From: a virus
Taxonomy: Duplodnaviria > Caudoviricetes
Direction: 5' to 3' (one strand)
IMG/VR virus record: IMGVR_UViG_3300020046_005360
Length of the DNA: 64,000 nt
The notes below the pieces were generated by a model. The model was not told the DNA's origin and made no database searches. It worked only from the letters and a program-made list of their open reading frames with translations. Of this stretch, positions 4,180 through 55,729 are shown one piece after another (position 1 is the stretch's first letter; the number at the start of each line of letters is the position of its first letter). The position numbers were made by a program, and so were the translations under genes.

Positions 4180-5283
4180 TTATTTTACGATACCAGCTAA
4201 TTGTTGCATTCTAAGTACAAAATCACTTTCTTGTGTTGTTACTTGTTCGTTTAATGCTCTTGGAGAAGAACCCGCTGGTCTTGAAGCGCTTCCTCTGTTT
4301 TCTCTTAATTGAGTAGTTGGCGTTGTGATTAGAGATTCTTTTAATGTTAAGAAAATATTCTTAGTTTCATTAATATTTCTTCCTCTGTCTAATGCATTAA
4401 CTACTTTTACTTTTTGAGATTCTGTTAAATTTTTAGCTTTAAATATTTTATTTACATATAAAAGTTTAGAATTTAACAAATTCATTTCATTAAGTGATTT
4501 TCTTTGTTCTGCTATCACTTTTTTAGCCTCTTGGAGTTCAGTTGATTCTGCTCTTAATGCGGATCCGGCTGCTGATCCTCCTGCGGCTAATTCTGCTTTA
4601 ATTTTAGCTAATACTTTAGGTCCGGCTTTTTTGATCATTGCAATGATATTATCTAATCCAGCGGCTGCTGTATTTGCAGGATCAATTGATCCACCACCCA
4701 TTTCAGATAAAACTTCATCTAAATTAATATCTTCTTCTTCACTTTCTTCTGACTCAGGTTCAAATTCTACTTCACCTTCATCTTCAAATTCTCCTTCAGG
4801 CTCTTCTTCACTTAATTCTAGTTGAACTTGACGAATAATATCTTTAAGTTCATCCACTGTAATTTCACCTACAACATCATCACCTTCAGCGTCTTCTTCT
4901 AATTCTAAACCTTCTGCTCTTAGTGCCGTACCTGCTGCTGCTCCTCCTGCTTCTAATTCTTTTTTAATTTTAGCTAAGATACCTGGAGTTTTTGCTGCTG
5001 CTCCTTTAATCATTGAGATTAAATTATCCAATCCAGCTGCTGCTGCACCAGAAGGTTCTTGCATCGCTTCATCAACGGCTCCTTCTTGTCCTTCTAATTC
5101 GTTAAGTAATTCATCTAAAGATACTTCTGATTCTTCTTCCATTTCATTTAATTGGCTTGAAAGCATACTTTTAATTTGTGGGGCGAACGATTCAGCCATA
5201 GCTAATTTAGCATTACTAAATGCGGTTTCTCTAATTTCTTTTGCTTCTGCTACTGCGTCTGCAAAAAGTTTTGGTTTTGACAT
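4180..5283 (-). CDS. Prohead core/scaffolding protein
   Basis: Acidic, coiled-coil protein between protease and capsid; many L/I-x-E sites; internal ~40-aa duplication; ends RMQQLAGIVK. Confidence 0.8.
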   Translation of the reverse strand: MSKPKLFADAVAEAKEIRETAFSNAKLAMAESFAPQIKSMLSSQLNEMEEESEVSLDELLNELEGQEGAVDEAMQEPSGAAAAGLDNLISMIKGAAAKTPGILAKIKKELEAGGAAAGTALRAEGLELEEDAEGDDVVGEITVDELKDIIRQVQLELSEEEPEGEFEDEGEVEFEPESEESEEEDINLDEVLSEMGGGSIDPANTAAAGLDNIIAMIKKAGPKVLAKIKAELAAGGSAAGSALRAESTELQEAKKVIAEQRKSLNEMNLLNSKLLYVNKIFKAKNLTESQKVKVVNALDRGRNINETKNIFLTLKESLITTPTTQLRENRGSASRPAGSSPRALNEQVTTQESDFVLRMQQLAGIVK

Positions 5284-5478: not shown

Positions 5479-6099
5479 TTATCTTAAGCAGCACATTCCT
5501 GTCTGAGAGCAAACAATTTCTGATATTATTTCGTTTAATTTATCGTATTTAGAATTAGTTTTTGGTATATAATTTTCATTAAGACCTAAAGGTTTAACGA
5601 ATGCTCCTTGTGTTGATGGTTCTGATACTATATCCCAACAAACTAAAGAAAGGTCGTCTTGAACTTCTACAGTACCTTCACCTAAACTTTGCACTGAACC
5701 CATAGCTCTAGATGATATACCTATTTGCACTCCACCTTTTACTAATGCTTTTACTATATTACCTGAAGGGGTGTCTAATATTAAAAGCTTAGCTTTTACA
5801 TCATCTCCATCCCACCAAACCTCTGTTATTCTGTGGCAAACGTTTTTTAAATTGACAACTTGACTATCAGGGTGATCTAATTCTCCTGTTGCTCTATTTT
5901 CAACAACGGGACCATTTTTATAGTTTTCAATTTCTCTTTCAAGTATATTTTTGGGGTAAATCCTTCCATTTTGATTTTTAGCATCAGCACGTTGAATAAT
6001 ACCTTCAAGAATTAAATCACCACTATTATGTTTAATACTCTCATTAATAGATTTAGGGTCGAGTTTAAGTGGAAAGTGTTCTATTAATAATTGCTTCAT
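5479..6099 (-). CDS. gp21: Prohead protease, T4 gp21-like
   Basis: NGRIYP, GELDHP (catalytic His), GISSRAMGS (catalytic Ser) and DIVSEPS motifs. Confidence 0.93.
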   Translation of the reverse strand: MKQLLIEHFPLKLDPKSINESIKHNSGDLILEGIIQRADAKNQNGRIYPKNILEREIENYKNGPVVENRATGELDHPDSQVVNLKNVCHRITEVWWDGDDVKAKLLILDTPSGNIVKALVKGGVQIGISSRAMGSVQSLGEGTVEVQDDLSLVCWDIVSEPSTQGAFVKPLGLNENYIPKTNSKYDKLNEIISEIVCSQTGMCCLR

Positions 6100-11137: not shown

Positions 11138-13918
11138 TTAGCCTAATAACCAGGTTAAGTCTTCTACACCCCCATGTCCATCTTGCATGCGATATGGATT
11201 TTGTTCATATGGATTATTATATACAGCAGGAGTAGCATAATTTACACTTGTGAAACCATTTAATACTGCTCTCGATAATTCTTCACTTTGTTTTTGATAC
11301 ATTAGTGTTGTTTCTCTCAAGAATAAAAATATTCCAATAGGTAAAACTAAGTCATCATTATGACCTTGTTGTGCTTGTGGTCTACCATTTTTATATATAA
11401 ATGTTCTAATCTCTTCTAATGCACGTTTTGAAAATATATCAACTGAATATTCGTTCATATACGAAATTAGTTTTGAGATGACAAGTGGTCTTGTCTTTTG
11501 GGTCATAGAAAATCCAGGAACCATACCTACATTACTATTATACTTAGATAAATATTGCTCCGAATCAATAGGGTTGTCTATTTTTGGAGAATAATATAAG
11601 TTTTTATATTCTTTGTCTATCATTCTACCTACAACGTCCCATCCTATACTTGCATTTTCGATAACACACAAAGCGTTATTCCATTCAACACAAGCTGCAT
11701 GTATAACATTAGCAAAATCTTTAGTAGGTAATTGAGATTTAAATTCAGCTACTTGACGACATAATTCTATATCAAAAACATGGAATGTAGAACTGTCTGC
11801 TCCATCTCCACGAGCAACATCGGCAATAAGTGCGTAAGATCGAGAATAATCAGGTATTTCAAATATCCAATATTCTCCATTTAACCCTCTACGTTCAAGA
11901 GGTTCTCGTGCTATATTTTTAGTATAATAATTTAATACATCAGTATCGATGACCGATTCACCACTCGTGATGAAATCTGCGTCACAATTATGTACTATAC
12001 CATACTCTGTTACATAAGTGTGTGTATTTTCAACTTCAAAATTATATACTTGTATTTTTTCTGATGAAGGATTTAATTGTAATATAGTTAATGGAATCCC
12101 ATTATCAATCATAAATTTAGTAGTCTTTCTATTATTAACTACTGTATTATAATTTTTTATTCTCTTACTAAATATTTTTTCATTCGAATCAATCTTAGTA
12201 TTACTATAAGTTAATATAGTACTATTTTTACATTGATATTCTTTTCCTAATATAATATTAGTACCTTCTTTTTTATTTATTGATATTGTTGTATTATATA
12301 ACCCCAACAAATTACTTATATATAAAGAATCATACACTAGTCTTTCAGATGTTAAACCTAATTTACAATTGTAATCAGATTTTAACATTCCATCTCCAAC
12401 CATTATACCATCAAGTATACCTTTTAGAGTTTCTTTATTACTATTTTCCCATACAAAAGAACTTATATGTTTATCTTGACAATATTTTCCTCCATCAATA
12501 CATAACTCTATGAATTTAAGAAATATTTGGTTTTTAACATATAAATTAGCTCCTTTATCTCGTTTACTAAGGTAATGAGAAAATATACTTATATTAAACT
12601 TTTTATTAATATAATTTTGTAATATTAAAGGCCATGAATGTTCTTCACTCTCTGTTTCTCCATTATACGAAAATGAAACTACATTATTCCAATAACTACC
12701 TTCAGATAAAAAACAACCTATAATAAAACCTAATTCATAATCAAATTCTATATGTCGATGTACGTAAGATTTTTTATTAATCCAAATTGATTCATCATTA
12801 GATTTTAGAGGAAAATATTGTGGATTATTAACTTTGATATAATCTAATAAATCTATTTTGGAAGGATTATCATACTGATTTATGTTAGTTGGAAATAACT
12901 GTATATATTGATTATGATCATATATACTTTCAACTGTAGTCCATTTATTAACAATGTTTAAGAAAGGATGATTACCTGTTGTATATTTTTGAATATTATT
13001 AATCCCATTTTTGATTTCATATAAATTGTTTTCCTCTATATGATTAAATGTTTTTAATACCTTATTAAAAGTTCCATCATGACTTAATACTATATCTCCT
13101 TCTTGGATGTCTTTAATATATTTAGGTCCTAATTTTGTATACACAATTGTATCTCCTGAGAAACATTCTTGTGCTGCATGTTTTACACCTAAATCTCTAT
13201 CTTGTTGGTCTCTCCAAGTTTGGTCTCGTTCTGGATGGACAGTCCAAGGAAGTAAAAGTGGAACAAAACTGTTTAATTTCTCTTGTGCTTTGGTAAATTC
13301 TTTATAAAACCAATTACCCGTTCCATTTGGTGATGATAATGCGATACAAGAACCCCCAGTAGCTAGGGTTTGTTGAGCACCAGTAAAGATTCTTTCAATA
13401 TTATCAATAAATGCGGCCTCATCTATTACAAGTAAAGTAACGGCTTCAGATCTTGATGCATTATCAGTTGCGGGTTTAGCTTGTATTTGAGAACCGTTTA
13501 CTAACTTAAGTAATAATTTATTATTCTCTGTATCTTTTAATCTTAACCAAGATGGAAGTTGATCGTATGAAAATCGTACTTTAGTAATTAAGTTTTTCGC
13601 TGTATCTTGCGTAGTAGCTAATACAAGAATATTCTTATCCTTATGGAATAACATTAACCAAAGTGAGAAAGCAGAAACTAGGGTTGATATACCTAGCTGC
13701 CTCGATTTATTAATTATACTCCACTCCCCCTTTTGAAAACGCCTTAATAGTGTTTCTTGGAATGGATATAGATTAAATAACATCCTACCTCGTTGTGGAT
13801 GTTGTATATAATAATATTTTTTACAGAAGTATACAGGGTCACTGGCACATTTATAAAATTCGTCTTTAACTAATTCCTTAAATGATTTTTGTGGTATTAT
13901 ATTTTCTTCTTGTGCCAT
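11138..13918 (-). CDS. gp17: Terminase large subunit (gp17-like) with intein
   Basis: KSRQLGIST, IDEAAF, SSPNG ATPase motifs; ADVARGDGAD and HNDDLV nuclease motifs. Confidence 0.95.
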   Translation of the reverse strand: MAQEENIIPQKSFKELVKDEFYKCASDPVYFCKKYYYIQHPQRGRMLFNLYPFQETLLRRFQKGEWSIINKSRQLGISTLVSAFSLWLMLFHKDKNILVLATTQDTAKNLITKVRFSYDQLPSWLRLKDTENNKLLLKLVNGSQIQAKPATDNASRSEAVTLLVIDEAAFIDNIERIFTGAQQTLATGGSCIALSSPNGTGNWFYKEFTKAQEKLNSFVPLLLPWTVHPERDQTWRDQQDRDLGVKHAAQECFSGDTIVYTKLGPKYIKDIQEGDIVLSHDGTFNKVLKTFNHIEENNLYEIKNGINNIQKYTTGNHPFLNIVNKWTTVESIYDHNQYIQLFPTNINQYDNPSKIDLLDYIKVNNPQYFPLKSNDESIWINKKSYVHRHIEFDYELGFIIGCFLSEGSYWNNVVSFSYNGETESEEHSWPLILQNYINKKFNISIFSHYLSKRDKGANLYVKNQIFLKFIELCIDGGKYCQDKHISSFVWENSNKETLKGILDGIMVGDGMLKSDYNCKLGLTSERLVYDSLYISNLLGLYNTTISINKKEGTNIILGKEYQCKNSTILTYSNTKIDSNEKIFSKRIKNYNTVVNNRKTTKFMIDNGIPLTILQLNPSSEKIQVYNFEVENTHTYVTEYGIVHNCDADFITSGESVIDTDVLNYYTKNIAREPLERRGLNGEYWIFEIPDYSRSYALIADVARGDGADSSTFHVFDIELCRQVAEFKSQLPTKDFANVIHAACVEWNNALCVIENASIGWDVVGRMIDKEYKNLYYSPKIDNPIDSEQYLSKYNSNVGMVPGFSMTQKTRPLVISKLISYMNEYSVDIFSKRALEEIRTFIYKNGRPQAQQGHNDDLVLPIGIFLFLRETTLMYQKQSEELSRAVLNGFTSVNYATPAVYNNPYEQNPYRMQDGHGGVEDLTWLLG
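11987..13165 (-). mobile_element. Intein (393 aa) with LAGLIDADG endonuclease in TerL
   Basis: Begins CFSGDT after ...AQE; ends VYNFEV...GIVHN followed by C(+1)DADF; internal FIIGCFLSEGS and GILDGIMVGDG. Confidence 0.93.
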
Positions 13919-24359: not shown

Positions 24360-25910
24360 TTATTTGTTTAATAAAATTTCTAAGTCTTTATATAATTGTG
24401 TTTTCTCTTCTTGATCTAAAATATTAAAAATTTTTTCATTTTTGATTGGATTTAAAAATACACCCTCACTAAAACCATATTTATTTCCTAATTCTTCAAG
24501 TTCTTCATCTATCTCAGGAAACGTGTCATTTTCTTCAAAATAATCTTCAATTTTATTATGTAATGAATTATATAAATCCATAAGTTTTTTAGAATCAATT
24601 AATGGATTATTTATCTTTATTTCCGAAAGTATTCCAGCTAATTGTTGTAATCTTTTTATTTCGTTCATTGTATTTAAATTATTTTTTTCTAAATATAGAA
24701 TACCATTTTTTTCTTTAACATTATAATGACCCCAACTATTTTTTTCAATATATTGTTTATAGGTATTATTTCTTTTTTTATGAATATCACTAGGGATATC
24801 ACGATCAGGATAATTTATAATTATAACATTTGGGTCATATTTACTAAAATATTTTTTAGCAACATTAAAAACATTATTTAATATTTTTAAATATAATTGT
24901 ATATTAGATTGTTCTCCAGTATTTCTTAATTTGGTAGTACCATATTCTTCATTAACAGAAAAAGATAATATACCAACTTTTTGAAATTTTTCGGGTATTT
25001 CATCTTTTAAATCTTCATAAAAATGTTTGTCTCCAGTCATTAAATTTTGTAAATGAGTTCCATATATTTTATCTATATATTCAAATGATACTGTAGGATT
25101 TACAGATAAAATAACTTCTATAGTATTACCATCTACAGTAAATGTTGATTTAGTAGTATTAGATACATCCTCAAATGCTTGTGTTTGTTTTTCATCTGTA
25201 GGATTTAATTCTTGGTTTATTTTTATTTCTCTTAAAAATGGGTCGATCTTGTACTTCTTACCGTCCATATGAAGTGTCTTTAAACCATCCAAATTTAACA
25301 TTCTGTAGCCCTTAGGACCATTTCCAATTTTAAGGTCGTATACGGGAACAAGTCCTTTATCTTTGGGACTATATGGAAGTTCTCCACCAGACGTATACTT
25401 GCGCACACCTGTAAGGCCATTCATTGCGCGTAGTGATCCGTCTCCTCGTTTAGTGAATACAGCTTGGAATATTTTTCCTTTAAAGGAAAGTAATTCACGT
25501 GCTTGTTCTTTACTTATAGTAGTATACTCGGCTTGTTTTTTCTCTATTTCTGGAGAAATAGGTTCATCTGGAACAGGTATAGTTTCAGGGGCTACTTCTA
25601 CATCAGGTTCAACTGTAATTTCTTCTTCATCACTCTTTGGGATAAGTTCGTCGTCTGAAATTTTTATATTTTCCGGTTCTTCTTTAGGAACAGGAATAGT
25701 TTCAGGTTCTAATTCTACATCCTCTTCGTCTTTGTCTTTGTCTTTGTCTTTGTCCTCATCTTGTTCATTAAGACCTTGTGGAAATGTCTTTTTGTAATCT
25801 AAAACAGCTATTCTCTCCTTAATAACTCCATCGATATATTTTTTATCCCATTTTTTGTTTTGGGGATCTTGAAGGAGAATGTTTGATATGTCGGAAATTT
25901 TTATACTCAT
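24360..25910 (-). CDS. Mosaic protein: acidic linker, WYL-like SH3 domain, EIKINQ module and fused MNEIKRLQQLAGI-EIKINNP unit
   Basis: 'FTKRGDGSLRAM...VYDL...GYRM' resembles the DUF2693/WYL-like fold; DK microsatellite. Confidence 0.55.
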   Translation of the reverse strand: MSIKISDISNILLQDPQNKKWDKKYIDGVIKERIAVLDYKKTFPQGLNEQDEDKDKDKDKDEEDVELEPETIPVPKEEPENIKISDDELIPKSDEEEITVEPDVEVAPETIPVPDEPISPEIEKKQAEYTTISKEQARELLSFKGKIFQAVFTKRGDGSLRAMNGLTGVRKYTSGGELPYSPKDKGLVPVYDLKIGNGPKGYRMLNLDGLKTLHMDGKKYKIDPFLREIKINQELNPTDEKQTQAFEDVSNTTKSTFTVDGNTIEVILSVNPTVSFEYIDKIYGTHLQNLMTGDKHFYEDLKDEIPEKFQKVGILSFSVNEEYGTTKLRNTGEQSNIQLYLKILNNVFNVAKKYFSKYDPNVIIINYPDRDIPSDIHKKRNNTYKQYIEKNSWGHYNVKEKNGILYLEKNNLNTMNEIKRLQQLAGILSEIKINNPLIDSKKLMDLYNSLHNKIEDYFEENDTFPEIDEELEELGNKYGFSEGVFLNPIKNEKIFNILDQEEKTQLYKDLEILLNK

Positions 25911-25911
25911 T

Positions 25912-26205
25912 TTATTTTGATGGAGTTATTTTTGTTAATTCATCTTCCCAAAATTCTATTATATTACCACCATCTTCTTCATCCCAATCATCTTCAAAAC
26001 CATTTGGATCCATTTTAAAAAATGCAGACTTATTATTTTCAACAGGATTATAACCATCAAATTCAACCCCAGTTTCTGATATATTTTCTCCTTCCAAATC
26101 ATATTTTTCTCCTAATCTTAAATTAGAGAATTTTACGTTTGGATTATTTACTTTAATTTCAGTTAATATGTCAGCTAGTTGTTGTAATCTTTGTATTTCG
26201 TTCAT
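25912..26205 (-). CDS. Minimal cargo unit: MNEIQRLQQLADI leader + EIKVNNP module
   Basis: Direct translation; very acidic payload. Confidence 0.7.
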   Translation of the reverse strand: MNEIQRLQQLADILTEIKVNNPNVKFSNLRLGEKYDLEGENISETGVEFDGYNPVENNKSAFFKMDPNGFEDDWDEEDGGNIIEFWEDELTKITPSK

Positions 26206-34900: not shown

Positions 34901-35479
34901 TTATTTATTTTTTTCTTTCGCTTCCTTGATTTGTCTCTTCATTTCTTTAATATAATCATGGTCAATTCCTCCTCCTTGCCATGTTTCACGTACGCCGTCT
35001 TCTGTTATAAAATCTTCATTTTTAGAATTAGCGTATTCGTCAAGAGCCTTTTCAAACTCAGTTAAATGTGAAGTAAAGTTTTTAGACATAAGATCTTTTT
35101 GATATTCTTCAAATTTACCTTCAATTTTAAGATTAGTTTCCATCTCAATTACACAATCAAAACATTTTCCATGTATATTATACATTTTTTTATTTAGATC
35201 ATATATTTTAAAATGATTTTTACAACAAGGACAAACTAATGGATATTGACCATATTTTTTAAGTGAATCGTATTTTGTTACGGTTTGTTTGATCCCATTC
35301 TTTATTACCCATTTCTTACCATCTTCTTCCCAAATATCACCTTCTATATGTTCTTCTTGTTGTTTAGAATACCCTGTTTGAGTTTTAGTAGTATCACCAT
35401 AACGTTTAGCTGTTATATTACGAATACGATTTAAATCGGACTCGTTCCATTCTTTTTTTAATAATGTATCTTTGCTCAT
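34901..35479 (-). CDS. Hypothetical protein with CxxC/CxxC
   Basis: EGDIWEEDGKKW, CPCC and CFDC. Confidence 0.6.
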   Translation of the reverse strand: MSKDTLLKKEWNESDLNRIRNITAKRYGDTTKTQTGYSKQQEEHIEGDIWEEDGKKWVIKNGIKQTVTKYDSLKKYGQYPLVCPCCKNHFKIYDLNKKMYNIHGKCFDCVIEMETNLKIEGKFEEYQKDLMSKNFTSHLTEFEKALDEYANSKNEDFITEDGVRETWQGGGIDHDYIKEMKRQIKEAKEKNK

Positions 35480-35619
35480 TTTTTGTTTGGGTCTTGATAA
35501 AGATTTATATAAGTTGGAATATTTCTTCTTTCTTTTGAAGATATATAATTAGCAGCATCTATTAATTTTTTTAATAATTTAACTTCTCTACATTTTATAT
35601 TTGGATTATTTACTTTCAT
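35476..35619 (-). CDS. 47-aa micro-ORF starting MKVNNPN
   Basis: Own translation; ATGA overlaps with both neighbours. Confidence 0.7.
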   Translation of the reverse strand: MKVNNPNIKCREVKLLKKLIDAANYISSKERRNIPTYINLYQDPNKK

Positions 35620-36164
35620 AAACCTAGTTTTTGTAATTCTTGTATAATTTCTTGTGTATTACCTTTATAAAGTAAACCTATCCCATTTCGAGCTTTCCAA
35701 GCCTGTATTGTGTCTTCACGATCGTCTATTAAAATTTGATTTGGACCAGATAGATCTGATTTACGTTCTGCAGATCTGAATTCAATATCATAATCACCTA
35801 AATTATCTTGAACCCAATGGGTTTTACCTTCAACCGAAACATTATTTCGTGATGGTGCAGTAAGAATAATAGGATTATATTGTTTAATATAATTCCACAA
35901 TTCTTGTCCTTCAGGCATCCAACTCATTCCTCTATAAAATCGCATACCGACCTCTTCATCAATAAGTGACCAGAATTTTTGTAATCCAATCTTAGGACCA
36001 AATTCCCTCTCGGCCCTAGCTCTATATTCAGATGGAGATAATCCACTAAAATGTTCGAAGCGGGATTCAAAGTCACATAAACAACCATCCAAATCTTGGT
36101 AAATTTGATATGAATCTTGCATATCTTCTAATAATAATTCATTTAATGTCATAACTTTATTCAA
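35616..36164 (-). CDS. HAD-family 5'(3')-deoxyribonucleotidase-like protein
   Basis: DLDGCLCDF, ILTAP, K..W and LIDDR motifs. Confidence 0.85.
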   Translation of the reverse strand: MNKVMTLNELLLEDMQDSYQIYQDLDGCLCDFESRFEHFSGLSPSEYRARAEREFGPKIGLQKFWSLIDEEVGMRFYRGMSWMPEGQELWNYIKQYNPIILTAPSRNNVSVEGKTHWVQDNLGDYDIEFRSAERKSDLSGPNQILIDDREDTIQAWKARNGIGLLYKGNTQEIIQELQKLGL

Positions 36165-39036
36165 ATATTTCGGGGTTTTCTCTACTAAATTTACGCATCA
36201 TAGTAGCTGCAGTTGAATTACATTCGTTCTCCCATTCATCTCCATCTTGACCAGATTCAGGTTTTAGTCTACCTTCTATATCTTGTTTTAAATGAACCAT
36301 TTCATGAAACATACTTCTTGTAATATCTGCTAAATTACGATTATAAGTAACAACTCTTATACTTTTATCACCGGGAGCATACCCACCAAATGAATGATGT
36401 TCTTTTGTATATTCAGGATTATTTATCAATATAACATTTGGTTTTGGAATATCCAAATATTTCATAGCATACTGTACTGCTTTATTTAATATAGGAGCAT
36501 GTTCTTTTTGAAATACTTCTTTTAATAATTTAGATTCATTAATAGTTTCAGGAACATCATTGGGATTAATTACACTTTTTGTTTTTAGAAAATTATTTAC
36601 TTCATAATCTCCCCACCAATTATTATATATTTTATTTGGATATCTTTCTATATTATGACTTATAATTGCAGGAAACGTAGGTGCTCTAAAATCATCTTTT
36701 ATTTCATTTTCACTAAGCCATTTATATCCATCTCTATTTAAAATAGGGAGTATTTTTAGCCAAGCTTCTTTATCTTTAACGTAATAATGCCAATTTTTAT
36801 CAGTTGGAAAATATAAACCCGGTTTATTCACTTTAATTTCATCAACTTCGTGATAAGGTTCTATAGTTGGTAATATATCTGAGATATATTGTTCCACACT
36901 TATTTCTTTATCTTTGTAAAGTGTTTTTACTTGTGGATATTTTGTTTGTAACTCTTGGATAAGTTTAAGAACACGAGTATTATCTCCCAACTTATCTAAA
37001 AATACATCAATTTCTTTAATATAATTTTTTGCGTTTGGAATTTCCTTTTTAGTACCCAAATTAATTCTTTCTTCAGATTCGTCTTGGGAAATTTTAGGAT
37101 GAACATTATTCGTATCCATTTCATCTGAATAGTAATAAAATGGAACAAATTTATAATTGTTTGATAATTTATTTCCGTCTAGTTTAATACGGACTAAAGA
37201 ACCTCCTATTTTAGGGTCATTTTTCCATAAATTTTTATTACGAGTAGTAGAAAAGTAATTTAAATATTCGATCCCCTTATCTTTAAAATCCGATTCTTTT
37301 TTTCTAAATGATTTAAAATCAGGACCTAAGTCATCAACTGCCGTTACGGAAGAATAAAATTTATTATCATCTAAAATACCTCTTAATCCATTAAGATTAG
37401 AAAAATGATACACATCACCTACGCTTTTAGCTTCATCTACACGTCTTGGTTCTCGTTTCTCCATCCCCATCATAATACCAACTAGTTTTGGAAGAGTAGA
37501 AGTATCTTTAATTCTATTATAGAAATCTGGAATATTATCACCTGACATATCATATCCATGTTTTTCTAATATATCACTTAATTCGGATTGGATTTTTACA
37601 GAATGAATTAAATCTTGGAAATCTTGGTAAGGTATTTTACCAGGCATATTTACTTTAATTTCTTCAATTGAAGCTAGTTTATCATAATATTTTGGATCTT
37701 CAAAGAGGTGATCCATAGCTATTTCTTCTGCTACGTCTTTAGAAGTGGTATGTTCTAATTCTACTTTAATACCTTTTTGGAGTTGTTTTCTTAGACTAGA
37801 TATATTAGCTTTATGTTTATCAGCTATGTCTTGTAAAGTTAGTCCAGAAGATAAACCACCAGGTATTTTTTCTTCATTTAATGAGTCTTTAACCACATTA
37901 AGCAATTCAGGGGCTTTATTAATCCATGATGATGAATCTTCGATATTAATATGAGGAGTAGATAAATATGGAGGTGGATTAGTTATTGCCGATTTTGATA
38001 CAACTTTATAATTATCATCCCAATCCTCAACTAATCTAGACCATTTAGGAACATTCATATTAGCAAAAGATGCTATTATTTTTTTATCTCTAACATCAAT
38101 TAAAAAATAATCTGGAGGTCTTTGTGTTGATTCTTGGGTTTTTAAAAATTCATTATATGAATGACTTTCTCCGTAAGCTTTTTTATAATTAAAGGGTTGA
38201 TTTACTTTTATTTCATTTAAATTTAATAAAGATTCATATTCTTTATAAATTTTATTTAATTCCTGTCCTGGTAGTGCTTCTAAAAATTCTTTAGTATTAC
38301 GAAAAGTTATTACATCCCCATATTTATCTTTAATATCTTCTATTTTATTAATATAATACAGTTGATCATTACTTTGAAGGGTTCTATATTTTTCTCTTAT
38401 TTGTTTTATCAAATTTATAACATCAATAACAGATTTAAATCCCGGAGTATTTACTTTTATTTCATGAAGTTGAAAATTCATTAAGAAATCGTCTACTTTT
38501 ATTCCTTCAGGAATTAAAGATTTAATTGCTAATCTATTTCTAATTCGTATAGCTTCACGCAATGAAGTAGATGATATGTCATCAAAATTACCAGCGTCTA
38601 TAATATCAACATTTGAATATTTTTCTCTATTTTCGTTTATAGAATTATATCTATCTTTTTCTCCTTTTCCATATACAACAATATAATTATTTGTTTTATC
38701 CTTAACTATATTATAAATTTCTGTTATAGGAGAAGATGAAGTAGATATTTTTACTTTAACATTTTCGGGCAATAAAGGAATATATTGTTTCCAAACTTTA
38801 AGTGATACTTCAGGAGTATATCCTTCACGTATATTATTTGAAATAATAATATGAAGTTCATCTACGTGTTGAGCAGCTCTCTTAGCAACTTCAACGTGAC
38901 CACGATGTGGGGGGGAGAACGAACCAGGATATAAGCTAATTATTTTAGCAGATTCGTGTATTATTCTTTCAGCAATTTTTTGTCCTAATCCTTCCATTCT
39001 GTTATTTCTTGTAATATTTTTTCTTTGGGATAACAT
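36157..39036 (-). CDS. Polyprotein-like mosaic: HxGH nucleotidyltransferase, four EIKVNxP modules, DUF5661-like, ART-like and HExxH domains
   Basis: PGSFSPPHRGH...ISST.LR; KGIKVELEH...IAMDHL.EDP.YY; YHF...STTR...ESEE; FHEMVH...E. Confidence 0.7.
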   Translation of the reverse strand: MLSQRKNITRNNRMEGLGQKIAERIIHESAKIISLYPGSFSPPHRGHVEVAKRAAQHVDELHIIISNNIREGYTPEVSLKVWKQYIPLLPENVKVKISTSSSPITEIYNIVKDKTNNYIVVYGKGEKDRYNSINENREKYSNVDIIDAGNFDDISSTSLREAIRIRNRLAIKSLIPEGIKVDDFLMNFQLHEIKVNTPGFKSVIDVINLIKQIREKYRTLQSNDQLYYINKIEDIKDKYGDVITFRNTKEFLEALPGQELNKIYKEYESLLNLNEIKVNQPFNYKKAYGESHSYNEFLKTQESTQRPPDYFLIDVRDKKIIASFANMNVPKWSRLVEDWDDNYKVVSKSAITNPPPYLSTPHINIEDSSSWINKAPELLNVVKDSLNEEKIPGGLSSGLTLQDIADKHKANISSLRKQLQKGIKVELEHTTSKDVAEEIAMDHLFEDPKYYDKLASIEEIKVNMPGKIPYQDFQDLIHSVKIQSELSDILEKHGYDMSGDNIPDFYNRIKDTSTLPKLVGIMMGMEKREPRRVDEAKSVGDVYHFSNLNGLRGILDDNKFYSSVTAVDDLGPDFKSFRKKESDFKDKGIEYLNYFSTTRNKNLWKNDPKIGGSLVRIKLDGNKLSNNYKFVPFYYYSDEMDTNNVHPKISQDESEERINLGTKKEIPNAKNYIKEIDVFLDKLGDNTRVLKLIQELQTKYPQVKTLYKDKEISVEQYISDILPTIEPYHEVDEIKVNKPGLYFPTDKNWHYYVKDKEAWLKILPILNRDGYKWLSENEIKDDFRAPTFPAIISHNIERYPNKIYNNWWGDYEVNNFLKTKSVINPNDVPETINESKLLKEVFQKEHAPILNKAVQYAMKYLDIPKPNVILINNPEYTKEHHSFGGYAPGDKSIRVVTYNRNLADITRSMFHEMVHLKQDIEGRLKPESGQDGDEWENECNSTAATMMRKFSRENPEIFE

Positions 39037-39728
39037 AAGGGTGAATAACCTATTTTATCTTCAATATTGTTTATTTTACTATCAATTTCTCCTAAAAGTA
39101 ATTTGAATTTATTTTCTTTTTCTAAAATTTGTTCTACTGTATAACTAGTTGTATCTGTTCTAAAAGAAGACTCAACTTGAATATTTTGTAATTCATATTC
39201 TACTGTTGTATTACCTGATTCAAATATTTCTACAAGATGCTCTTCTTCCTCAGTATACTCCGTCTCATAAATATAAATATTATCCTTTCCAAACATATTT
39301 ATATACTCGTCTATTTGAGAATATACTTGTAACCATCGTTCTAGAAGAACTTGTTTGGGTATTCTTCGTTCACGAGAAAAATTGCGTTTAAACGCGATAA
39401 TTGGATTACAATATACTATTATGACTTTATATTGGTATTGCTTATAATCGATGATTTTGCGCAGAGTCTTCGTATTTGAACCAACGGTTTGAAGTATAAA
39501 ATTCCACCCTTCATCCATTTGATTTGGGAGGACAGTTTTATACAAGAAATTTGATGCTTTGAGTGGATTATTATAAAATTCACTATCCTCATTTTCAACC
39601 CAAATATCAGGATCAAGTCTCCCCCACATTTCTGGTTCTTGAAAATCATCCCAACGACATAATTCTTCTTCAAATTGGGTTTTACCTGATGCAGGTGAAC
39701 CCATTATTAAGATACCTTTATTGCTCAT
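38985..39728 (-). CDS. P-loop kinase (AAA_33/zeta-like)
   Basis: GSPASGKT, LDPD and RNFSRER. Confidence 0.7.
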   Translation of the reverse strand: MSNKGILIMGSPASGKTQFEEELCRWDDFQEPEMWGRLDPDIWVENEDSEFYNNPLKASNFLYKTVLPNQMDEGWNFILQTVGSNTKTLRKIIDYKQYQYKVIIVYCNPIIAFKRNFSRERRIPKQVLLERWLQVYSQIDEYINMFGKDNIYIYETEYTEEEEHLVEIFESGNTTVEYELQNIQVESSFRTDTTSYTVEQILEKENKFKLLLGEIDSKINNIEDKIGYSPLCYPKEKILQEITEWKD

Positions 39729-39864
39729 GTTTCTTTTGGATTATTGTTTGTAGTTTTTGGCTATCAGAATTTAAAAATTGTGGGAGTATTTCAATCCATT
39801 TTCTCATTAATTCTCTCTTTTTATATTCTTCTTTAGCAGTAATGTTTGGATTATTTACTTTCAT
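39718..39864 (-). CDS. 48-aa micro-ORF starting MKVNNPN
   Basis: Own translation MKVNNPNITAKEEYKKRELMRKW...; TAATG coupling with the upstream micro-ORF. Confidence 0.7.
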   Translation of the reverse strand: MKVNNPNITAKEEYKKRELMRKWIEILPQFLNSDSQKLQTIIQKKHEQ

Positions 39865-40001
39865 TACTTATCATCTTTAAAAAGTGATTGAAATTTATCT
39901 GGTACCATAGCGCTTTTTCTTCCAGGAGAAGTTATATATTTTCTAAATTCTTCATATAACTTAGCTTTTGCTAATACATCGTTTGGGTTATTTATTTTCA
40001 T
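39864..40001 (-). CDS. 45-aa micro-ORF starting MKINNPN
   Basis: Own translation MKINNPNDVLAKAKLYEEFRK...; first gene after the CGTATATTTA motif at 40016-40026. Confidence 0.7.
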   Translation of the reverse strand: MKINNPNDVLAKAKLYEEFRKYITSPGRKSAMVPDKFQSLFKDDK

Positions 40002-40055
40002 AACTTTAATTTTTGTAAATATACGAAGGCCCCTTTATGAGGCCTAATTTTTAAA

Positions 40056-40115: not shown

Positions 40116-40907
40116 CTACTTTTTTCGTTTTATAACAGTCGGGAAACTGAAATGTGATGGTTCTTGTTTTGGGTTTTCAATATCGAATATAATTCTTAAT
40201 GCTTTATAAATTTCAATATTTTTTTCATGTTTACGAGTTGGTTCTATAAGCTCCCAACCCTTTCCTTTAATTTTTTTACCTGTTTTGTCTGGTCCTCTTG
40301 AACCTGCTTTTAACCAAAGGATACCGGTTTTTGCTACTTTCTTTTGATAACATTCTTCATAACATGTTCTATATAATGAAGTTTGGATTTCATAAGTAGA
40401 AACAACTTGGTTTGATGTTTTTAAATCTATAATCCAAATTTCACCATTTATTTCACAAACTATATCACAAGTACCTGCTATTTTCAAAACATCAGAAAAT
40501 AAATGAACTTCTGCTTCTAGAAGAGTAGGTTTAAATAATTCCCAAAAGTCAACGAAATTAAGGAACATTCTCCATATTTCAGGATCATATTGTGGTTGTT
40601 GTTTACTATCAAGGAAAAATAATTCTTCTCCATTTAAATATCGTTCACACAAATCGTGTACTTTAGTACCATCATCTGCAGCTTTATGAGCAATAATTTT
40701 TGAATTATAACCATATTTCATCAACCATTCTTCAAAATGTTTACCCTTCGGGTAAAGACCTAATACTGATGTTATAGAGGGGTAATATTTTCCATTACGT
40801 CTATAGAAACGAGAATCCAAAGTTGTTATTTGAAGTGAGTCTTTGGATAATTCTAAAATACGACCGTATTTTTTATTTTTTAATATTATAGGTTTTTGTT
40901 CTGTCAT
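40116..40907 (-). CDS. PD-(D/E)xK exonuclease
   Basis: YPSITSVL, GTKVH, E...AGTCD...IDLKTS and Q..LY motifs. Confidence 0.85.
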   Translation of the reverse strand: MTEQKPIILKNKKYGRILELSKDSLQITTLDSRFYRRNGKYYPSITSVLGLYPKGKHFEEWLMKYGYNSKIIAHKAADDGTKVHDLCERYLNGEELFFLDSKQQPQYDPEIWRMFLNFVDFWELFKPTLLEAEVHLFSDVLKIAGTCDIVCEINGEIWIIDLKTSNQVVSTYEIQTSLYRTCYEECYQKKVAKTGILWLKAGSRGPDKTGKKIKGKGWELIEPTRKHEKNIEIYKALRIIFDIENPKQEPSHFSFPTVIKRKK

Positions 40908-41841: not shown

Positions 41842-42576
41842 TTATTTAAATTTCCATATGAAACCATATGCTTGTTTTGCTTTGTTATTACAACAATTTG
41901 ATATTGAAATTGGACTATTTTTATTAAAAAATAAAGAAGCAGACTTCATATTATCCCATTCTTTAATATAACTACCATCTAAATCAAATTGAATAACTTT
42001 TATACTACGTCTATTTGACTTTTTATCAACATAAACAGGTTTGTCCTTTTTAATTTTGGTGTTTTTATATTTTATATAAGAAAAGTTTTCTTCTAATGGA
42101 TTATTTTTAAATCTCCAAACAAATCCACCAGAAGTATTTTGATTACCTTTAATACAATTCGATATATCTCTAATTTTAATACCTAAAATATTTTCTACTT
42201 CTGTTAAACTAGGCCACTCTTTAATAAAATTACCTTTTATATCATATTGTAATATAGGTTTTACTCCTTTACCTATACTAGATATACTTAATTTTAATAT
42301 GGATTCATAAGAAAATGAACTAGGCCCACCTCCTCCTTCATTTTCATTTAATACTTCGAATCCAAAATTTTTAAATTGTCTAATCCAGAAAGTTTCTAAA
42401 GGTTTCCAATCTTTATGATTCCAAGAATTTACTTCATCAATATAATCGTAAGTAATATACTCACCGAAGGTCTTTTTATGTTTATTTTCTCTAGAATTTT
42501 TTGTTTTACCAATATAGACTTTGTTAGGGTCTCCATGGCAATTAGTAACTAGGTAAATTTTGGTAAGTTCTATCAT
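41842..42576 (-). CDS. GIY-YIG-like homing endonuclease with NUMOD1 repeats
   Basis: Paralog of 13918..14814 (TKIYLVTNC.G.PNK.YIGKT). Confidence 0.8.
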   Translation of the reverse strand: MIELTKIYLVTNCHGDPNKVYIGKTKNSRENKHKKTFGEYITYDYIDEVNSWNHKDWKPLETFWIRQFKNFGFEVLNENEGGGGPSSFSYESILKLSISSIGKGVKPILQYDIKGNFIKEWPSLTEVENILGIKIRDISNCIKGNQNTSGGFVWRFKNNPLEENFSYIKYKNTKIKKDKPVYVDKKSNRRSIKVIQFDLDGSYIKEWDNMKSASLFFNKNSPISISNCCNNKAKQAYGFIWKFK

Positions 42577-54737: not shown

Positions 54738-55729
54738 TATCTTATAACTTTAAAATAATTTGATTTATCATCTATAATAATAATATTACCGTTAATTATG
54801 GTTTTAAATAAAATTTGATAATATCTTTCAGGTTGAAGACCATTCATATATAATTTGAAATAATTACCATTATTATTTGCTCCTAATTTAGTTCCAAGAT
54901 TATTATAATCTATGATAATTTCTTCAGTTTTTAAATCTTTTAAAGACCAATATGATTCTTCAGGCAATATTTTATTATTTAAATATACTGAACTACTTTG
55001 GAAACTCCTAGTAGGATATTTATCTCTGTTTTTTACTGTGAACGTATAAACACTATTAGAATTGAATTCTTGTTTTAAATTAGTAATATTAGTAGTAAAA
55101 TCTCCACTAACAGTATTTAAAGATGAACTATAACTAGTATCATCCCAATAAAATTCTAGGTGTGGGGGGTATATAGTATGAGTATCTGATGAAAAGAAAT
55201 TAGTTTGTATACTTAATGAAGATGATTCTATAACATCATTATATTTTATTAATAAACCATTATTTGGAATTATATTATTAAACCAAAAGTTAATTATATC
55301 AGTTACATCACAATTAATATCTTTATTATCTTGGTAATTAAAAGATTGAGATATACCAGAATTAGTATAATTTCCCCCATCCCAAGAAGATGTTAATGTA
55401 GAATTATTCCAAGAAACACCATTTTGGGGGTTTGGATTATCTCCATTTCTTCCTGTACCCATATCCCAAGGTTCATTTATTGGATGAAATTCAAAAGAAT
55501 AATCTAGAGGTAATGCAGACGCATTTGAAAAATATAATTTTATATCAGTTCTATAAATTCCCGATGCACTCATTATCAAATCAGTTATTTCTCCTTGATC
55601 AAATTGAATTAATGCTCTAGATTTTGAGTTTGTAGATATCTCAAATATTTCATCACGCCCATAATTAAAATTAGGTTTATCTTCAGAAATATAAGAGTCT
55701 TTTATTGGAAATAGTTTATAAACAGCCAT
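54737..55729 (-). CDS. DNRLRE/CBM96-like domain virion protein
   Basis: KDSYISE..P..NYG...SRALIQFD...W..G.G...NNGLLI...F.S....PHLE. Confidence 0.6.
   Translation of the reverse strand: MAVYKLFPIKDSYISEDKPNFNYGRDEIFEISTNSKSRALIQFDQGEITDLIMSASGIYRTDIKLYFSNASALPLDYSFEFHPINEPWDMGTGRNGDNPNPQNGVSWNNSTLTSSWDGGNYTNSGISQSFNYQDNKDINCDVTDIINFWFNNIIPNNGLLIKYNDVIESSSLSIQTNFFSSDTHTIYPPHLEFYWDDTSYSSSLNTVSGDFTTNITNLKQEFNSNSVYTFTVKNRDKYPTRSFQSSSVYLNNKILPEESYWSLKDLKTEEIIIDYNNLGTKLGANNNGNYFKLYMNGLQPERYYQILFKTIINGNIIIIDDKSNYFKVIR

Follow-up and report, generated by a model that had tools for sequence, protein, structure and literature searches.

A recurrent N-terminal heptapeptide on mini-proteins of a T4-type phage lineage: a candidate free-N-terminus label and coding joint

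Phage T4 packages diverse small proteins, the internal proteins, which share only a short N-terminal targeting sequence (PMC3012670). ITE and LTE are among the sites cleaved by its prohead protease, gp21 (PMC5694885), and in T4-type phages conserved sequence handles named PeSLs mediate shuffling (PMC2839356, PMC4122927; Arbiol et al. 2010, Comeau et al. 2014). Here we describe a heptapeptide, MK[VI]NNPN, with which three very small open reading frames (ORFs) begin in a 64,000-nt stretch of DNA from a virus of the Caudoviricetes (IMG/VR record IMGVR_UViG_3300020046_005360). This stretch, to which all positions below refer, is called the window; it corresponds, in reverse complement, to bases 102777-166776 of a viral contig that measures 175,065 bp and has 28% G+C, and its minus strand codes all large ORFs. 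The phage is uncultured and is present in the samples JGI 3300020037 and 3300020045 and ENA ERZ27249330. Our analysis indicates that the three ORFs are members of a real, selected class of tagged mini-genes, presumably translated and presumably early. The heptapeptide, which we call the tag, is under selection and is a so far undescribed label.

The T4 internal proteins (IPI, IPII, IPIII and their polymorphic replacements) are, together with the PeSL cassettes, the nearest parallel, in that small unrelated proteins from a variable locus share a short N-terminus and a gp21-type protease is encoded in the same genome. However, gp21 cleaves off the T4 capsid targeting sequence, the last residues of which are [LI]xE, whereas the tag at the start codon corresponds to the residues after the cut. 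There is no Glu within the seven residues, and the three ORFs lack a consistent [LIVF]xE site shortly after them. Because their tag has no cleavable [LI]xE, the micro-ORFs lack one defining feature of T4 internal proteins. Two further differences are that a separate, longer leader resembling the C-terminus of a scaffold protein looks like the true targeting sequence here, and that the putative mini-protein genes lie behind an early-type promoter motif.

The locus recalls the PeSL cassettes of T4-like hyperplastic regions in that a predicted stem-loop and a putative early promoter head a junction of small unrelated genes. It shares with them precise insertion, deletion or replacement between close relatives, the junction holding one, two, four or six tagged ORFs or only an untagged one. 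Unlike in PeSL cassettes, the repeated element is roughly the first 18 coding bases of each gene, which would be translated and contain no promoter-terminator unit. A single unit of hairpin and TCGTATATTTAC stands ahead of the array, and five relatives have kept it; the stretches between the cassettes and behind them are free of further units. The likeness is thus only partial, because the repeated unit is coding sequence.

Some peptide motifs are active only at a free N-terminus, such as the AVPI motif that is exposed by processing and binds inhibitor of apoptosis proteins, or the bacterial N-degrons read by ClpS. These can be compared with the tag by function only, as short peptides that follow a protease cut or stand at a protein start; they have no sequence likeness to it, and N-terminal Ile, Val or Met is, to our knowledge, not a classical bacterial N-degron. 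Substrates of gp21 and other Peptidase_S77 proteases are comparable in a different way, as copies of the tag inside larger proteins are preceded by I/L/V/F-x-E. The sites of T4 and giant-phage proteases as described have no conserved prime-side residues (PMC5694885), whereas six conserved residues follow the presumed cut here.

Tagged mini-genes at a variable junction

An earlier note on this DNA had reported three micro-ORFs that begin directly with the tag, are tightly coupled to their neighbours and have unrelated sequences after the tag. All three are present, on the minus strand, and the features of the locus are as follows.

35476..35619, minus strand: micro-ORF 1, 47 aa, MKVNNPN; gene cassette next to the nucleotidase gene
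35599..35619, minus strand: 21 nt coding for the ORF1 tag; its ATGA contains the nucleotidase stop codon
39718..39864, minus strand: micro-ORF 2, 48 aa, MKVNNPN; belongs to a small conserved family of tagged mini-proteins predicted to be helical
39844..39864, minus strand: 21 nt coding for the ORF2 tag; its initial base also ends the ORF3 stop codon
39864..40001, minus strand: micro-ORF 3, 45 aa, MKINNPN; first gene after the hairpin and promoter-like motif
39981..40001, minus strand: 21 nt coding for the ORF3 tag
40015..40026, minus strand: TCGTATATTTAC, promoter-like motif of early type, 13 nt before the ORF3 ATG
40027..40045, minus strand: G+C-rich, terminator-like hairpin of 7 pairs, directly ahead of the promoter-like motif

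The common DNA start of the three ORFs is ATG-AAA-[GTA/ATA]-AAT-AA[T/C]-CCA-AA[T/C]. The coupling to neighbours consists of stop/start overlaps of 1, 4 or 11 nt: the ORF1 start overlaps the nucleotidase stop and the start of the following gene overlaps the ORF1 stop (ATGA, 4 nt in both cases), the ORF2 start overlaps the ORF3 stop (TAATG, 1 nt), and the kinase start overlaps the end of ORF2 by 11 nt. When the bodies of the three micro-ORFs were compared with one another, no significant similarity was found, in agreement with the earlier description. The gene calls of the public collection list all three ORFs; Pfam and PHROGs gave no family for any of them.

The tag is far more frequent at ORF starts than chance would allow. 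Nine ORFs of 42-80 aa in the genome to which the window belongs start with it, three of them in the window, against 0.011 predicted when residue frequencies are taken from positions 2-6 of the remaining 288 ORF starts. Relatives were reached via the adjacent kinase (87-44% identity), for which a search listed 50 clusters, and the exonuclease-kinase junction was then compared in each. The search of relatives that the earlier note had proposed yielded 31 distinct tagged ORFs in ten related sequences, with arrays of up to six at this junction. Every one of the 31 ORFs starting MK[VI]N runs on as [NK]P, and no decayed copies of the tag were found among the related sequences. The class is common across the lineage and consists of basic proteins of 40-106 aa, all starting MK[VI]N[NK]P.

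The content of the junction varies from relative to relative. It holds six tagged ORFs in L042, four in L038, two in L039 (with three more elsewhere in the locus) and one of 106 aa in each of L040 and L041, while L043 has one tagged and one untagged ORF and L046 an untagged ORF only. Between one and six tagged ORFs are kept at the junction in relatives with kinases only 44-87% identical. Within families, the bodies are 32-81% identical and the tag is unchanged, and the ratio of non-synonymous to synonymous substitution rates (dN/dS) of the bodies is 0.33-0.51 in five of six pairs. The uniform continuation as [NK]P and the invariance of the tag over family members whose bodies are down to 30-60% identity argue that it is no relic on the micro-ORFs. 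Cassettes are gained and lost precisely: L010 has an extra tagged ORF, and ORF1 is missing from L004 by an exact indel that leaves the upstream stop and the downstream ATG 3 nt apart. Several tagged mini-proteins of two families at the junctions of L010, L038 and L039 end in K-S-K-[YF]-H-K before the overlapping start of the next gene, which may be a second conserved junction sequence.

Of the three, ORF2 has a conserved family. Its relatives occur in L010 (83% identical) and in L042 and L043 (~35%), and the core L.KW.E[IR]LP is common to all four lineages. The DNA of ORF2 is 100% identical between the lineage of the window and that of L004 (L004-L009), in a comparison in which ORF3 differs at 6 of 138 bases and the kinase protein is only 82% identical; identity of ORF2 next to divergence of ORF3 and the kinase points to a mosaic of recent exchange. 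ORF3 is 93% identical to its L004 counterpart, with a dN/dS of 0.33 that derives from only 5 changes.

Structure models place the tag outside the folded parts. In the AlphaFold2 model of the ORF2 family (mean predicted local distance difference test score, pLDDT, of 80) a single helix spans residues 6-47 and leaves tag residues 1-5 outside. Residues 1-12 of another tagged family have no secondary structure in a low-confidence model (mean pLDDT 67), and the other four models were poor. These models weakly suggest that the tag is a linear N-terminal overhang rather than a fold element. We set aside the idea that it is part of a common fold, since neither of the two models includes it in secondary structure and there is no relation among the bodies.

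The arrangement of hairpin and promoter-like motif is kept at the junction in L004, L038, L039, L040 and L041. Genome-wide, the core GTATATTTA, mostly present as TCGTATATTTAC, has 36 copies on the coding strand and 3 on the other, nearly all of them 23-50 nt upstream of an ATG. They cluster in the small-gene region, while the head/tail block has none, and GTATATTTA is likely to be an early promoter consensus of this phage lineage. The motif resembles the Bacteroidota -7 element TAnnTTTG, and we read it as a putative promoter of early type. In the window the core occurs at 54988, 40024 and 33726. The earlier note had placed two micro-ORFs right behind such a motif, and this is so for ORF3 only, at 13 nt; ORF2 lies ~160 nt further on in the same putative transcript.

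The tag peptide within larger proteins

Among the products of the genome are a major capsid protein and an intein-containing large terminase, both of T4 type, and a prohead protease of the Peptidase_S77 family. Two of its genes are relevant to the internal copies of the tag:

5479..6099, minus strand: T4 gp21-type prohead protease (Peptidase_S77), presumed enzyme for internal E|I sites
36157..39036, minus strand: 959-aa multi-module protein with NMNAT-like and DUF5661 parts and an HExxH end; E|IKVN.P tags begin at 38460, 38211, 37659 and 36837

Internal tag copies follow [ILVF]xE at 44 sites in all. The genome of the window contains 23 internal tag hexapeptides with Ile in place of Met, 22 of which come after I/L/V/F-x-E. 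An alignment of the nine start-codon tags with these 23 in-frame internal sites gave the same hexapeptide, with Met aligned to Ile; the earlier observation that Met replaces the Ile of an E|I site was thus borne out. In other words, a cut by the prohead protease at [ILVF]xE|IK[VI]N.P would expose an N-terminus identical to the tag peptide. Ahead of the micro-ORF tags [ILVF]xE is absent, and the in-frame upstream sequence consists of stop codons or belongs to another reading frame. As no residues precede the tag in the three micro-ORFs, the protease could not cut them there.

Five proteins start with a 16-aa leader whose final xxE adjoins the tag and which copies the C-terminus of a protein encoded in scaffold position; 25912..26205 codes for a leader-bearing protein. 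These leaders, the T4 gp21 site type and the precedent of the T4 internal proteins make cleavage at E|I plausible, the direct indications of it being the preceding [ILVF]xE and the encoded homologue of gp21. The gene that lies between those of the protease and the major capsid protein (4180..5283, minus strand) has a product ending in RMQQLAGIVK, which recurs as the leader of the five tagged proteins. The whole 16-aa leader, including its Met, is also found in frame within a 516-aa protein (24360..25910, minus strand), at ~24620-24670 and just ahead of an internal tag, which suggests that a gene of leader, tag and module was fused there onto an upstream gene.

Further observations concern single copies. 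In the 959-aa protein, a module of ~112 aa (36499..36837, minus strand) starts with the tag and is inserted in frame, relative to L004, between Glu and the next residue; it ends in I-N-E and looks like an in-frame mobile cassette between two protease-type sites. The large terminase gene (11138..13918, minus strand) contains an intein with matches to Pfam Intein_splicing and PT-HINT, and in this region, at 12838, lies the only in-frame tag of the genome that does not follow Glu. It reads D-Y-IKVNNP and continues with an F-P-L stretch, like the 'FPI' family of tagged mini-proteins. In the primase-exonuclease area of L042 (L042:4031-4183), a tagged mini-protein begins with the tag and has an RQLAGI stretch later that resembles the scaffold C-terminus, an order that is the reverse of the presumed capsid cargo.

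Proposed peptide function, coding joint and rival readings

Codon usage within the tag bears on the level at which selection acts. The internal tags vary at every synonymous position (e.g. ATA/ATT/ATC and CCA/CCT/CCG/CCC), which argues for selection on the peptide. Start-codon tags vary synonymously at codons 2 (AAA/AAG 26:5), 5 (AAT/AAC) and 6 (CCA/CCT/CCC 23:7:1), and this too points to peptide-level selection. All in-frame tags but one in this genome stand at a start codon or directly after Glu, so that an N-terminal or potentially N-terminal position is common to both contexts. The coding strand of the genome has 27 DNA matches to the tag, 26 of which are in-frame tags, and there is one match on the opposite strand. 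Since these 26 copies are all in frame and none is found in spacer, we set aside the possibility that the motif acts purely as DNA, for example in binding or homing. Ribosome skipping of the 2A type was set aside because NPGP is missing from the motif and [ILVF]xE ahead of it is more in keeping with a protease site, and internal translation starts at ATA or ATT were set aside because they leave the conserved hydrophobic residue at -3 and Glu at -1 unexplained.

The reading we favour, with a probability of about 0.5, is that the tag has a function as an N-terminal peptide; we infer this function, its partner, the translation of the ORFs, the E|I cleavage and the early timing from sequence. Tagged mini-genes fill variable junctions between conserved genes, most clearly that between exonuclease and kinase behind the hairpin and the early-type promoter. 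Their cassettes are gained and lost precisely and are chained by stop/start overlaps within the tag DNA. The heptapeptide would be a short linear N-terminal motif in which an N-N-P turn or helix cap comes after an extended M/I-K-V/I, and selection would maintain it for a function that requires it at the front of a polypeptide. It could be presented by two routes, through proteolytic unmasking in capsid cargo and through direct translation in early mini-proteins, and the ~18 conserved bases would additionally serve as a coupling joint and recombination handle. A more specific form of this proposal is possible but less likely: [M/I/V]K[VI]N.P might be an address label that a single shared partner, of host or phage, recognises only when the N-terminus is free. 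It would be unmasked by the prohead protease in injected capsid cargo and translated directly in a fast-evolving set of basic early mini-proteins, so that the two display routes would bring both protein sets to the same place in the newly infected cell; the analysis found no common partner.

Several findings weigh against a peptide function as the sole or main cause of the tag's conservation. In the start-codon tags Val is encoded by GTA in 19 of 19 cases (47% genome-wide) and codon 4 is AAT in 31 of 31 (83% genome-wide), and these fixed codons keep TAA at bases 8-10 and 12-14. The sequence ATGAAAGTAAATAA has stop codons in both other frames, and for this reason overlaps are built into the tag DNA. 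At no fewer than eight array junctions in L010, L038 and L042 the last of these stops is in use, and the upstream ORF ends inside the next tag with a 14-nt overlap, so that the upstream ORFs end in [YN]E[GSN]K-stop. Tags also coincide with breakpoints of module replacement, as in the 959-aa protein, where two modules are replaced from the tag onward relative to L004. Since the replacements begin at tags, a role as recombination handle is real and could suffice alone. The gene of this protein, with its four internal tags, belongs to an operon that follows an early-type promoter, and a scaffold-like leader is missing, so prohead cutting cannot be assumed for every internal tag.

The properties of the proteins behind the tag also speak against a single shared role. 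The tagged mini-proteins are basic (isoelectric point, pI, >= 8.7 in 32 of 35; 9.6-9.9 for the bodies of the three micro-ORFs), whereas the internal protease-bounded modules are mostly acidic (p = 3e-8, Mann-Whitney); the average for the remaining small ORFs in the genome is neutral. None of the three micro-ORF bodies has significant similarity to any internal module. One tagged family outside the three ORFs, with four paralogues in the genome, aligns with the inserted module of the 959-aa protein (hhalign P = 0.002 with the tags removed), a suggestive resemblance. Basic mini-proteins and acidic modules are thus mostly not counterparts. The proposal of the earlier note that the micro-ORFs are newly expressed counterparts of virion-delivered modules fits these data poorly, as the only resembling family lies outside the three ORFs.

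At the level of the single gene, the case is uneven. No homologues of ORF1 were found beyond near-identical genomes, and none of ORF3 beyond near-identical strains among 1.84 billion representatives. The only non-self match of the ORF3 search, a repetitive 916-aa protein, was judged spurious, and an ESM Atlas search with ORF3 gave scores all below 0.9. The dN/dS of ORF2 relative to L010 is ~1, from 12 changes only. Codon usage is suggestive for ORF3, weak for ORF1 and uninformative for ORF2, as the respective scores were reached by 8, 32 and 91 of 291 spurious open ORFs. The evidence for gene status is moderate for each ORF taken singly and much stronger for the tagged class as a whole.

In a rival reading the tag of the mini-genes is kept for nucleic-acid reasons only; the peptide would matter only at internal sites, as the prime side of the protease site, and the mini-proteins would simply have inherited it. 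The tag would then supply a start codon in A-rich context, stops in two frames that couple translation, and ~18 bases of homology for cassette swapping, and the nucleotide constraints together with the breakpoints mean that such a junction or recombination role could keep the tags in place without any peptide function. The invariant GTA and AAT preserve both TAA stops, the 14-nt overlap is in use at the junctions of L010, L038 and L042, indels fall exactly at start and stop junctions, and the replaced modules of the 959-aa protein diverge from the tag onward. The internal copy of the whole leader, including Met, points to in-frame cassette fusion, and shuffling handles are known in T4-type phages (PMC2839356, PMC4122927). 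Yet codons 2 (AAA/AAG 26:5) and 6 vary freely, Pro6 is invariant in 31 of 31 tags although it lies beyond the built-in stops, and most tagged ORFs do not use the internal stops. This explanation also leaves open why the tag is identical to the prime-side peptide of the protease sites and why untagged small ORFs occur at the same junctions. We regard it as possible, and as the chief competitor of an N-terminal peptide function. Both peptide and nucleotide selection seem to act on the start-codon tags, and the tag bases clearly also work as a coupling joint. The earlier idea that the motif works at a free N-terminus is therefore partly upheld, in that the tag is selected and stands at a start codon or after Glu; it is qualified by the added nucleotide constraint and by the breakpoints at tags.

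Alternatively, the mini-proteins could act on head assembly through the prime-side pockets of the protease or through the core, as pseudo-substrates, regulators or packaged cargo. Residues P1'-P6' of the presumed protease sites have the sequence of the tag, the L042 mini-protein with RQLAGI recalls the scaffold C-terminus, and T4 packages diverse small proteins with a shared short N-terminal sequence (PMC3012670). However, the mini-genes lie in early-type clusters after an early-type promoter motif and outside the head block, and the mini-proteins have no [ILVF]xE ahead of the tag and, with one exception, no scaffold-like leader of the kind seen in presumed cargo. A role directed at the prohead is improbable on this evidence.

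That the ORFs are no genes, but untranslated leftovers, decayed module fragments or chance frames in A+T-rich spacer, is very unlikely: the lack of distant homologues of ORF1 and ORF3, the indecisive codon usage of ORF1 and ORF2 and the dN/dS of ORF2 stand against a tag enrichment (nine versus 0.011) that excludes chance, bodies that are basic and dissimilar to the acidic modules, exact stop/start overlaps on both sides, a gap of ~390 nt that would otherwise open in a tightly packed genome and that holds 1-6 ORFs of the same design in relatives, and the ORF2 core motif conserved in four lineages. Decay from modules, which the earlier note had named as a possible refutation, is accordingly contradicted for the three ORFs by their basic bodies and the lack of similarity to internal modules.

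Should the tag prove functional as an N-terminal label, viruses would have a new kind of protein marking, with two ways of exposing the same seven residues: a capsid protease and a start codon. A simple sequence rule would then pick out candidates for injected or early effectors in uncultured phages of this lineage, and work on capsid cargo would gain a natural minimal tag. If it is mainly a joint in coding sequence, the idea of PeSL shuffling handles would be extended to a handle that lies within genes rather than between them, with start codon, stops in both other frames and homology packed into 18 bases.

Neighbouring genes and the wider lineage

The conserved genes that border the tagged mini-genes are the following.

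40116..40907, minus strand: PD-(D/E)XK exonuclease gene, conserved upstream border of the variable junction; synteny in relatives and in Flavobacterium phage immuto
38985..39728, minus strand: P-loop kinase-like gene with Zeta_toxin/AAA matches, conserved downstream border of the junction
35616..36164, minus strand: 5'-3' deoxyribonucleotidase gene, upstream neighbour of ORF1
34901..35479, minus strand: 192-aa gene, downstream neighbour of ORF1

Among cultured phages immuto comes closest; its capsid protein and the one encoded here share 53% identity. The two genomes share the gene order primase, exonuclease, kinase-like gene, ~900-aa NMNAT-containing protein and deoxyribonucleotidase. A coding match to K[VI]N[NK]P was found nowhere in immuto, and there are no small ORFs at the corresponding junctions; the presence of the tag system in this closest cultured relative was therefore rejected. 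A megablast search of cultured phages with the region gave zero matches, and a search of viral contigs and metagenome contigs for loci related by the kinase returned no relatives. An exact DNA-pattern scan of IMG/VR gave 26 single matches, mostly chance occurrences or in-frame interiors of unrelated proteins, among which only L012 and L017 appear related.

The primase-exonuclease area is variable in a further respect: homing-endonuclease-like genes (GIY-YIG, NUMOD; 41842..42576, minus strand, in the window) differ in presence and position among the window, L004, L039 and L041. The window itself differs from the genome record at two bases, 1067 and 1078.

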